From Candidatus Aenigmatarchaeota archaeon (GTDB lineage Archaea > Aenigmatarchaeota > Aenigmatarchaeia > PWEA01 > JACQIF01), in contig CP066684.1 in NCBI GenBank assembly GCA_016432325.1, positions 160,001-224,000 of the forward strand: a stretch of 64,000 bases of DNA, read 5' to 3'. The first letter of the stretch is position 1. Every line of letters begins with the position of its first letter. Of the stretch, positions 15,727 to 52,192 are shown piece after piece. The notes beneath the pieces were generated by a model. The model was not told where the DNA came from. It was given only the letters and a program-made list of their open reading frames with translations, and ran no database searches. The translations under genes and the position numbers were made by a program.

Positions 15727-15745
15727 GATAATCGGAGTTCCTTCT

Positions 15746-16013
15746 GTGGGATAGGCCGGGGGAGCTAGGGGTCCCTTGCAAGCGCAAACCCTCTACAGCG
15801 CGGCCGAAAAGCCTGGAGAGGTCCGGTTGTACGGCAGGCCTCAGGAACTGACTGAGAAGTCCTGTCCTTCTGGAGCGCTTCAGGCGCGAACCTGGTCAGG
15901 CCCGGAAGGGAGCAGCCATAAGCGTCTGCAACGCTGTTAGAAGGGTAGCAGGATGGAGAAGGCTTCTGGGACAACCTTCCGTGTGACCAAAGATCCATCC
16001 AGGCGAATCCCAT
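15746..16013 (+). ncRNA. ffs: archaeal SRP (7S) RNA
   Basis: Helix 1 GTGGGAT/ATCCCAT; Alu-type 5' region TAGGCCGGGGG..GGGGTCCC..AAGCGC; helix 8 CAGG-CCC-GGAA-GGG-AGCA at 15893-15918. Confidence 0.92.
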
Positions 16014-16034
16014 CAATCTATACGTTGGATTATC

Positions 16035-30591: not shown

Positions 30592-30700
30592 TGGAGCGGG
30601 GGTTGGGAATTGCACCCAAGTAGATCCGCTTTCCGGCATGTCGGAAAATCGCGTTTCCGCACGCCTGCAGGCGGACGCATAGCTGCTCTGCCACCCCCGC
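30592..30700 (-). tRNA. tRNA-Cys(GCA) with 34-nt intron at 37/38 (30631-30664); encoded CCA
   Basis: Acceptor GCGGGGG/CCCCCGC, U73, anticodon stem TCCGC/GCGGA, T stem TTGGG/CCCAA; 75 nt after intron removal. Confidence 0.92.
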
Positions 30701-44220: not shown

Positions 44221-44404
44221 GGGGCCATAGGATAACCCGGCAGTCCTGCCGGCTCCAGTTGGCGCAACTGGCGCGCTGAGTCTCCGGACGATGACAAGGA
44301 AGATACCGGCTAGTCCCGGTTCAAACCGGGCTTTCTTTAAAAAGAAAGCACGGGTGCAAAGAAACTCCGCTTTCCAGCACATGAGAATCCGGGTGGCCCC
44401 ACCA
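44221..44404 (+). tRNA. tRNA-Trp(CCA) with introns at 37/38 (44259-44304) and 59/60 (44326-44387)
   Basis: Acceptor GGGGCCA/TGGCCCC+ACCA, anticodon stem GCCGG/CCGGC, T stem CCCGG/CCGGG; 76 nt after removing 46+62 nt. Confidence 0.9.
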
Positions 44405-50543: not shown

Positions 50544-51101
50544 ATGGACGGCTGTGTGTTCTGCAAGATAGCCACGAAGGAGATAGCGTCAGAGATAATC
50601 TACGAAGACGACAAGACCCTCGCGTTTCTCGACATCAATCCGATTACTCCCGGCCATACCGTGGTGATTCCCAAGGGCCACGCCTCAAGCATCGTGGATA
50701 TGGACACCAAAGGAGTGCAGGCCGTTTTTACCGCGGTGAGAAACGTCGTGCAGCAGATACAGAAGGCCATGTCTCCTGTCGGTTTCAACTACGGCGTCAA
50801 CCAAGGGCGCGCGGCGGGGCAGGCCATAGACCACCTGCACGTTCACGTGCTGCCGCGCTTTGAGAACGACGGCGGCGGCTCGATACACATGATAGTGAGA
50901 AATCCTCCGCGCAAACAGACGGTCGAAGAGATAGGGGGCACGATACGCGCGGCCTCGGGGTTTGTCCAGAAAGACGAGCCCGCGGAGGAGGCGCCGGCGA
51001 AGAAAGAGGAGCCGAAGGAAGACCTGGAAAAGAAGATGAAAGCGCTTGAAGAAGAGATGTCCAAGCATATCGCGACTCTGAAGAGGATGAGGCGGCCTTA
51101 A
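50544..51101 (+). CDS. HIT family protein with C-terminal extension
   Basis: CVFCKI, FLDINP..GH, AGQ..HLHVH. Confidence 0.92.
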   Translation: MDGCVFCKIATKEIASEIIYEDDKTLAFLDINPITPGHTVVIPKGHASSIVDMDTKGVQAVFTAVRNVVQQIQKAMSPVGFNYGVNQGRAAGQAIDHLHVHVLPRFENDGGGSIHMIVRNPPRKQTVEEIGGTIRAASGFVQKDEPAEEAPAKKEEPKEDLEKKMKALEEEMSKHIATLKRMRRP

Positions 51102-51185
51102 AGCGAAGCTTCAGATCTCCCTGCTGGGAAGGATGCGAGGAGGTCGTAATCGTGTTTTTATTCTTGTGTCGCACACTCGAACCAA

Positions 51186-51466
51186 GCGGCGATAGTCTAG
51201 TGGTTTCCGCGGCAGCTTCATGGCGTACACCGCCCCGCGGAAATTGTAGGACCTTAGCCTTCCATGGCGCCTTTTTGAGCACGTCCGCTCAAAAACCCGC
51301 GGGAATGCACGGAACAAAGTTCCGGCACATCGGGAGCACACTCCCGAATAAAATCCGCTGGCGCACGATGAAAGCTAATGACCCGGGTTCGAACAAGTGG
51401 CACGTGCGCGCGCCCCTTGAACCCCTACGACGTAGGCGTTTCATGAAAATCCCGGTCGCCGCACCA
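51186..51466 (+). tRNA. tRNA-Gly(TCC) with three introns: 20/21 (51205-51247), 37/38 (51265-51372), 59/60 (51394-51449)
   Basis: Acceptor GCGGCGA/TCGCCGC+ACCA, D stem GTCT/GGAC, anticodon stem TTAGC/GCTAA, T stem CCGGG/CCCGG; 74 nt after removal. Confidence 0.88.
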
Positions 51467-51499
51467 ACGTTTATATCCACATAATCATCTCTTTATCGC

Positions 51500-52192
51500 A
51501 TGCCCATAGAACGATGTACGCTCGGAGTGTCCGGTCTTGACCAGTGCATCGAAGGCGGCCTTCTGAGGGGAAGTTCGAACCTTGTTGCCGGAGGGCCCGG
51601 TTCGGGAAAATCCATCCTGTGCATGCAGTTCCTGGTGGACGGCGCCGTGAAAGGGGAAAACGGGATGTACGTCTCTTTCGAGGAGGACGAGACGCAGATG
51701 GCGCAGAACTTCTCCCCTTTCGGATGGGAACTGGACAAGCTGGTGAAAGGCGGCAAGATAATGCTGAAGTATTTCTCTCCGGAGCACGTGGCGACTTACC
51801 TCAAGGCGCCTGTAGACCCCCTGCTGGACACGGTTCGCCAGTACAACGTCAAGAGAATCGTGATAGACTCGGCAAGCGGCTACGAGATACTCTTCGACAG
51901 CGACTACAGCCGCCGCGTCGGCCTCCTGAAGCTCCTCGAAAGCCTGAAAAAATACGGCGCGACCATACTGATAACTTCTGAGCGCGACCTGTCCACGGAG
52001 GCCCCCAACTTCATAGAGTTCCTGGTCAACGGAGCGATAGTGCTGTACAACACCCGGCAGGGCAGCCAGCGCGGCCGCGGAATCGAGGTGCTGAAGATGC
52101 GCGCCACGAACCACACGCAGAAGATAATGCCAATGAAGATAGACAAGAAGGGGATAACGGTCTACCCGGACGAGCTGTTCTTCCAGGCATAG
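51500..52192 (+). CDS. KaiC-like RecA-superfamily ATPase (single domain)
   Basis: G..GLD..EGG, GGPGSGKS, SFEE, IVIDS, VLKMR. Confidence 0.9.
   Translation: MPIERCTLGVSGLDQCIEGGLLRGSSNLVAGGPGSGKSILCMQFLVDGAVKGENGMYVSFEEDETQMAQNFSPFGWELDKLVKGGKIMLKYFSPEHVATYLKAPVDPLLDTVRQYNVKRIVIDSASGYEILFDSDYSRRVGLLKLLESLKKYGATILITSERDLSTEAPNFIEFLVNGAIVLYNTRQGSQRGRGIEVLKMRATNHTQKIMPMKIDKKGITVYPDELFFQA

Follow-up and report, generated by a model that had tools for sequence, protein, structure and literature searches.

A 281-nt locus in the genome of a Candidatus Aenigmatarchaeota archaeon is best explained, with a probability that we put at roughly 0.9, as a single functional tRNA-Gly(UCC) gene whose ~281-nt precursor would be spliced at BHB motifs by EndA and RtcB to a 74-nt tRNA. 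The locus lies in the 64,000-nt stretch of contig CP066684.1 analyzed here (positions 160,001 to 224,000, hereafter the window). Three introns of 43, 108, and 56 nt interrupt the D, anticodon, and T loops and make up 207/281 nt of the gene (Table 1). An earlier note on this DNA had proposed exactly this architecture from the letters alone, and when the four exons are joined, ARAGORN calls the 74-nt product tRNA-Gly(tcc).

Table 1. Features of the tRNA-Gly(UCC) locus and other features of the window (window coordinates; intron sites in tRNA numbering)
Feature	Coordinates	Strand	Description
tRNA-Gly(UCC) gene	51186-51466	+	281 nt, three introns
TATA-like element TTTTTATT (putative promoter)	51155..51162	+	centre ~27 nt 5′ of tRNA start; read from sequence
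Exon 1	51186..51204	+	acceptor 5′ strand, U8 A9, D-stem 5′ strand, D-loop through U20
Intron 1	51205..51247	+	43 nt, D-loop 20/21
Exon 2	51248..51264	+	A21, D-stem 3′ strand, C26, anticodon stem 5′ strand, loop C32-A37, anticodon UCC
Intron 2	51265..51372	+	108 nt, anticodon loop, canonical 37/38, contains three hairpins
Exon 3	51373..51393	+	A38, anticodon stem 3′ strand, 4-nt variable loop, T-stem 5′ strand, T-loop U54-A59
Intron 3	51394..51449	+	56 nt, T-loop 59/60
Exon 4	51450..51466	+	U60, T-stem 3′ strand, acceptor 3′ strand, A73, encoded CCA (51464-51466)
TTTATAT motif	51470-51476	+	right after tRNA CCA, ~27 nt before KaiC-like start codon at 51500
HIT-family gene	50544-51101		neighbor
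KaiC-like gene	51500-52192		neighbor
tRNA-Trp(CCA)	44221-44404	+	introns 46 nt (37/38) and 62 nt (T-loop)
tRNA-Cys(GCA)	30592-30700	-	one 34-nt intron, T-loop TGCAATT
Archaeal SRP RNA	15744-16015	+	Rfam RF01857, 128 bits

The spliced product has the features expected of a glycine tRNA. ARAGORN folds it into a cloverleaf with a 7-bp acceptor stem, a 4-bp D stem containing one U.G, and 5-bp anticodon and T stems, with 21/21 stem pairs intact, and it carries U33, G53, the T-loop UUCGAAU, and discriminator A73. Its CCA end is encoded, which is common to the other tRNA genes of this genome recovered by the census described below. Glycine identity of the archaeal/eukaryal type is set by the anticodon NCC together with G1:C72, C2:G71, G3:C70, and A73; the spliced product carries this set, as do 13/13 orthologues. 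The predicted exon–exon junctions, marked here by a slash, are GTCTAGTGGT/AGGACC (exons 1 and 2), CCTTCCA/AGCTAA (exons 2 and 3), and GGTTCGAA/TCCCGG (exons 3 and 4).

The TATA-like element upstream of the gene probably represents an archaeal promoter. A 12-mer, TTTTTATTCTTG, is also found 5′ of the orthologue in a sister species, 25 nt from the tRNA start as against 23 nt here, while the spacer around it differs. The gene is flanked by a HIT-family gene on one side and a KaiC-like gene on the other; scanning contigs with the KaiC-like protein returned a sole match, to an unrelated cyanobacterial one. As a separate observation, the TTTATAT motif may have two roles, promoting a leaderless mRNA for the KaiC-like protein and, being T-rich, ending transcription of the tRNA. 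Other kinds of RNA element were considered for the locus. A permissive Rfam scan of 50900-51750 (E up to 10) gave just two chance-level matches, both outside the gene, and lent no support to a group I/II self-splicing intron; reading all three introns revealed no CUGA/RUGAUGA pair of a C/D-box guide RNA.

The same gene is present in the sister species, which belongs to the same genus (G001; the genome studied here is G000). The orthologue there is 327 nt long (L002 1366-1692, -), its spliced product is likewise called tRNA-Gly(tcc), and its insertions of 44, 91, and 118 nt occupy the three sites used in G000. The two mature tRNAs show five differences, including a compensatory change at 28:42 (U-A to C-G) and a change at 13:22 from U.G to C.A. 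BHB geometry is equal at all three junctions in both species although intron sequence has diverged, and a G.U in the D-loop central helix of G000 is G-C in G001.

Orthologues from the wider order extend this comparison. We recovered 13, all of them colinear with the spliced product. Introns in this gene are absent from G010, restricted to 37/38 in six genomes of family f5, found at 37/38, 59/60, or both in members of family f4, and present at all three sites, D-loop intron included, in G000 and G001. Both-sided changes occur at seven stem pairs (acceptor pairs 4, 6, and 7; anticodon-stem pairs 1-3; T-stem pair 2), and stem pairs stay standard across the 13 orthologues save 13:22, which is C.A in three genomes. 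At this last pair of the D stem the other 10 genomes have U.G, a both-sided change between two wobble-type pairs. G011, and probably also G007, was left out of this set. The G011 orthologue (L003/L021, G011:C7, -) has a ~15-nt insert in the anticodon stem near 28/29 and a long T-loop intron, with no intron at 37/38, and the 5′ region of the G007 orthologue (L020) is identical to that of G011.

A pattern running from exon 1 to exon 2, with room for as many as 61 inserted bases, found 58 metagenome contigs, and the exon 1–exon 2 junction is uninterrupted in 58/58. Among these environmental tRNA-Gly(UCC) genes, 47 are intronless, seven have anticodon-loop and T-loop introns, one has an anticodon-loop intron only, and three were unsolved. 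An exact pattern for the 5′ exons of the genus type, with or without a D-loop insertion, had no metagenome match. The D-loop intron is limited to this genus among the genomes and contigs searched.

We laid out each junction in the standard archaeal scheme of an outer helix, a 4-bp helix, 3-nt bulges cut after the second base, and an inner helix. At 20/21, the D stem serves as outer helix, the central helix AGUG/AAUU is paired at 3/4 positions with a G×A mismatch, the bulges are GU^U and GU^A (the caret marks the cut), and the inner helix spans 7 bp. At 37/38, the anticodon stem is followed by the central helix CUUC/GAUG, also 3/4 paired, bulges CA^U and AA^A, and an inner helix made up of a G-C pair, a bulged A, and 5 bp. 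At 59/60, the T stem is followed by a fully paired central helix (UUCG/UGAA, 4/4) and a 3′ bulge AA^U; the inner helix is not closed, and the 5′ cut site sits in a three-way junction without a closed 3-nt bulge. The predicted layout is strict at 20/21 and 37/38, each with one central-helix mismatch, and relaxed at 59/60, and in these forms it bears out the suggestion of the earlier note that a BHB-like motif exists at every junction. With one mismatch each in the D and anticodon central helices and no closed 5′ bulge in the T loop, cleavage would depend on an enzyme of broad specificity.

The unspliced RNA itself is predicted to form a stable fold. The minimum free energy (MFE) of the 281-nt precursor is -116.6 kcal/mol, as compared with -94.1 ± 4.8 kcal/mol for 200 dinucleotide shuffles, none of which is as stable (z = -4.7). 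The four cloverleaf stems are all present in the MFE structure and in the centroid, and the insertions form side structures.

An unlikely alternative is that the gene is real and at least one splice site is misplaced by a base or two, for example if a 42-nt intron were removed to leave an 8-nt D-loop, AGUGGUUA. In orthologues from outside the genus the D-loop has 8 nt (AGTGGCTA and similar), as against 7 nt in the product predicted here, the central helix of the D-loop BHB contains the G×A mismatch, and sequence repeats at the junctions permit two or three equivalent registers. The D-loop boundary had indeed been described as ambiguous by up to 2 nt, and cut registers -1, 0, and +1 are equivalent in that they yield one identical product; read from the junctions, the 37/38 intron has two equivalent registers and the T-loop intron three. 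However, the rule that a 4-bp helix lies between two 3-nt bulges selects one and the same register in G000 and G001. Moreover, the uninterrupted D-loops of tRNA-Gly(GCC) and tRNA-Gly(CCC) in the same genome are 7 nt long, and the D-arm of tRNA-Gly(GCC) is identical to the predicted spliced D-arm, TAGTCTAGTGGTAGGAC.

As the earlier note had anticipated of standard annotation, common tRNA finders miss this gene. ARAGORN, with or without intron mode, makes no call on the unspliced tRNA-Gly(UCC), and the Rfam tRNA covariance model misses it at both gathering and permissive thresholds. When any T-loop insertion is retained ARAGORN finds nothing, and when other insertions are retained it miscalls the gene. 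Open frames of 63-161 aa overlap the locus. Across the whole genome, ARAGORN makes 12 calls, several of them doubtful, and Rfam reports eight matches above cut-off, against a minimum of 37 tRNA genes in this genome.

A census designed around tRNA structure recovers many more. Each locus had to show an acceptor stem of 7 bp, U8, N-CCA, a D stem, an anticodon stem of 5 bp with U33, and a T stem of 5 bp whose final G53 leads into TTCRA, while the D, anticodon, and T loops could be of any length; a more permissive search, which asked just for a UCC anticodon arm with half a T arm after it, gave hundreds of chance matches and was dropped. The census returned 37 loci, or 35 distinct genes once alternative 5′ ends are merged, and all 35 bear introns: 17 have three, nine have two, and nine have one, with a T-loop insertion in 26/35. 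Three introns are the commonest state of a tRNA gene in this genome among the 35 genes recovered, and the tRNA-Gly(UCC) gene is not the singular oddity as which it had been presented. At least two uninterrupted tRNAs fall outside the census: tRNA-Thr(UGU) (831659-831731), with its unusual T-loop, and tRNA-Leu(CAG) (582673-582757), which lacks an encoded CCA (genome coordinates).

The gene appears to be the only one of its kind in the genome. Glycine tRNA genes in the census are tRNA-Gly(UCC), tRNA-Gly(GCC) (290443-290316, -), and tRNA-Gly(CCC) (758809-758935, +; both in genome coordinates), the last two with one T-loop intron each. A check for another UCC gene, suggested at the outset, found neither a second gene with this anticodon nor an intact copy in the 875-kb genome (census and BLAST), and the spliced 74-mer matches only its own four exons, separately, by BLAST. 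Anticodons GCC and CCC cannot read GGA under standard decoding rules, and GGA accounts for 25% of the glycine codons in 546 long open reading frames, or 19 of every 1000 codons. The tRNA-Gly(UCC) gene is apparently indispensable.

These observations also bear on the possibility of a pseudogene in decay, into which mobile hairpin repeats have inserted, with GGA read by another tRNA, which we regard as highly improbable. Recurrence of the intron modules in the genome at 91-96% identity would be expected of selfish DNA, and the assembly is 90% complete by marker genes (56% GC), so another gene could in principle be absent from it. Yet the assembly forms a single contig (874,869 bases, just 100 N), no other UCC gene or intact copy is found in it, and the codon GGA is common. 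None of the 21 stem pairs is broken; G001 retains the gene with the compensatory change at 28:42 and intact BHB motifs; and the three-intron architecture, being shared by 17/35 census genes, cannot be taken as a general mark of decay. That the cloverleaf is a chance result of freely choosing three deletions from GC-rich sequence, as the many degrees of freedom of three removable segments might suggest, is refuted by the census controls (0 loci in the reversed genome and 0 in two locally shuffled copies, compared with 37 in the real one) and is also at odds with the colinear orthologues bearing zero, one, two, or three introns and with the stability of the fold.

The genome encodes the enzymes that splicing of a functional tRNA-Gly(UCC) gene would call for. 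It has one EndA of 186 aa (G000:C1:849784-850344, -; L013:1474-2034), of alpha type with N-terminal and catalytic domains (PF02778 and PF01974), and Pfam and phmmer searches of the genome found no second family member or beta subunit. RtcB is also present (PF01139, 531 bits). Among solved structures this EndA is closest to the alpha4 enzyme of M. jannaschii, relative to which it has an extra Lys-rich insertion of six residues, KLKKGPKSAKEH, between the catalytic Tyr and His. The insertion aligns gap-free to the alpha subunit of N. equitans and overlaps the insertion of the ARMAN-2 enzyme. Kaneta et al. (PMC5829648) described an L3 loop in alpha4-type EndAs of several DPANN lineages, alongside increased tRNA gene disruption, and took the incomplete tRNA sets of DPANN genomes to indicate undetected disrupted genes. 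From its alignment, KLKKGPKSAKEH may correspond to this L3 loop. The annotated 186-aa form clusters at ≥90% identity with MBI4017710.1, which is labelled Candidatus Aenigmarchaeota archaeon.

Taken together, the preferred reading implies the following path. Most likely, a ~281-nt precursor would be transcribed from the TATA-like element ~27 nt upstream and would fold with acceptor, D, anticodon, and T stems formed simultaneously, each of the three loops holding a BHB-ended insertion. The genome's only EndA would presumably cut all six sites, and RtcB would then join the four exons into the 74-nt tRNA, which would read GGA (and GGG). Since the three motifs coexist in the predicted fold, no order of splicing would be required.

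The introns differ in their relationships within and between genomes. The D-loop intron has no paralogue in the genome and is ~60% identical to its G001 counterpart, with the inner helix kept. Of the 37/38 intron, just the ends that form the BHB are common to G000 and G001, and its interior resembles introns of other tRNA genes in G000: it shares 91% identity over 94 nt with the D-loop intron of tRNA-Arg(UCG) (743521-743614) and 96% over 69 nt with that of tRNA-Met(CAU) (830599-830667), with shorter matches in introns of tRNA-Ser(GCU), tRNA-Ser(CGA), tRNA-Val(GAC), and tRNA-Lys(UUU). Over 39 nt, the 59/60 intron shares 95% identity with the T-loop intron of tRNA-Ser(CGA), and it partially matches those of tRNA-Gly(GCC) and tRNA-Val(GAC). 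The 59/60 introns of G000 and G001 are not homologous; the G001 intron opens with 44 nt that share 95-98% identity with T-loop introns of G000 tRNA-Tyr, tRNA-Trp, tRNA-Leu(UAA), and tRNA-Glu(CUC). Copies of intron hairpin modules also occur outside census coverage, at G000:C1:652755-652783, 649169-649217, and 757959-757999, the last within a probable tRNA at 758067-757699.

One possibility, to which we would give slightly less than even odds, is that this gene catches intron gain and turnover under way in a DPANN lineage, with a D-loop intron limited to the genus, a swapped 59/60 intron, and a recent three-hairpin cassette at 37/38. If so, the sister species would differ at 59/60 because one hairpin module of a genome-wide pool has been exchanged for another. 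A drive by mobile hairpin modules fits these sequence comparisons, and we offer it as a proposal. Were it true, tRNA introns would be built and rebuilt by mobile hairpin DNA that relies on a broad-specificity EndA for its harmless removal, providing a visible route to the origin of archaeal tRNA introns.

The gene belongs to a known class, the archaeal multi-intron tRNA genes spliced at BHB motifs. Caldivirga maquilingensis reportedly has tri-split tRNA-Gly(UCC)/(CCC), said to have been described by Fujishima et al. in 2009, and in both cases the same tRNA species is divided into pieces that join at BHB motifs. In C. maquilingensis the pieces derive from separate genes and are joined in trans, whereas here a single 281-nt stretch contains all four exons in their proper order for joining in cis, and we rejected a split or tri-split trans-spliced tRNA on this ground. 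Tri-split tRNAs are cited in PMC5829648, which maps categories across 46 species and predicts undetected disrupted tRNA genes in DPANN.

Multi-intron tRNA genes of Thermoproteales (Sugahara et al. 2008) and intron transposition (Fujishima et al. 2010) are reviewed in PMC4033280 and PMC4090602. As in Thermoproteales, near-identical introns are found here in different tRNAs and at different positions, a pattern termed intron transposition in that group (PMC4090602). Unlike Thermoproteales, the host is no crenarchaeon but a DPANN archaeon (Aenigmarchaeota) with a genome of 0.87 Mb, and, unlike the crenarchaeal (alpha-beta)2 enzyme, its EndA apparently consists of a single alpha subunit with an insertion that differs from the Crenarchaea-specific loop. 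With DPANN archaea that have disrupted tRNA genes and loop-bearing EndAs (ARMAN-2 epsilon2, N. equitans (alpha-beta)2, and 'L3-loop' alpha4; PMC5829648, PMC3488258), it shares the superphylum and an insertion between the catalytic Tyr and His, which can be aligned to the insertions of N. equitans alpha and ARMAN-2. The statement that triple-intron tRNAs are known mainly from Thermoproteales matches reviews of 2014 (PMC4033280) and is now dated by reports of disrupted tRNA genes in DPANN (PMC5829648) and of multi-intron tRNAs in Asgard archaea (PMC11291895). In Atabeyarchaeia and Freyarchaeia (Asgard), 92-95% of tRNA genes have introns, more than half have several, many introns lie at non-canonical positions, and part of the intron-bearing tRNA genes are missed by tRNAscan-SE (PMC11291895). 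The genome studied here resembles theirs in its intron-rich tRNA genes and differs in belonging to another superphylum, their genomes being much larger.

Our literature search found no published description of this gene or of three-intron tRNAs in Aenigmarchaeota. It adds a well-supported three-intron tRNA outside Thermoproteales, and is notable mainly for occurring in a DPANN genome with an apparently single-subunit EndA and for the graded series of zero to three introns that its relatives show for one tRNA. Orthologues with zero, one, two, and three introns within one order form a compact series for dating intron gain and for probing the range of a loop-bearing, single-subunit EndA. In addition, since finders miss such genes, genomes can look as if they lacked tRNAs, including the sole reader of GGA, and judgements of DPANN metabolism and completeness that rest on tRNA counts would be biased.

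The archaeal SRP RNA is the only Rfam result for the window, and ARAGORN finds no tRNA in these 64 kb apart from tRNA-Cys(GCA), which has an unusual T-loop and appears in intron mode alone. Both ARAGORN and Rfam miss tRNA-Trp(CCA), whose T-loop intron begins with ~43 nt that share 95% identity with the opening of the T-loop intron in the sister species' tRNA-Gly(UCC).
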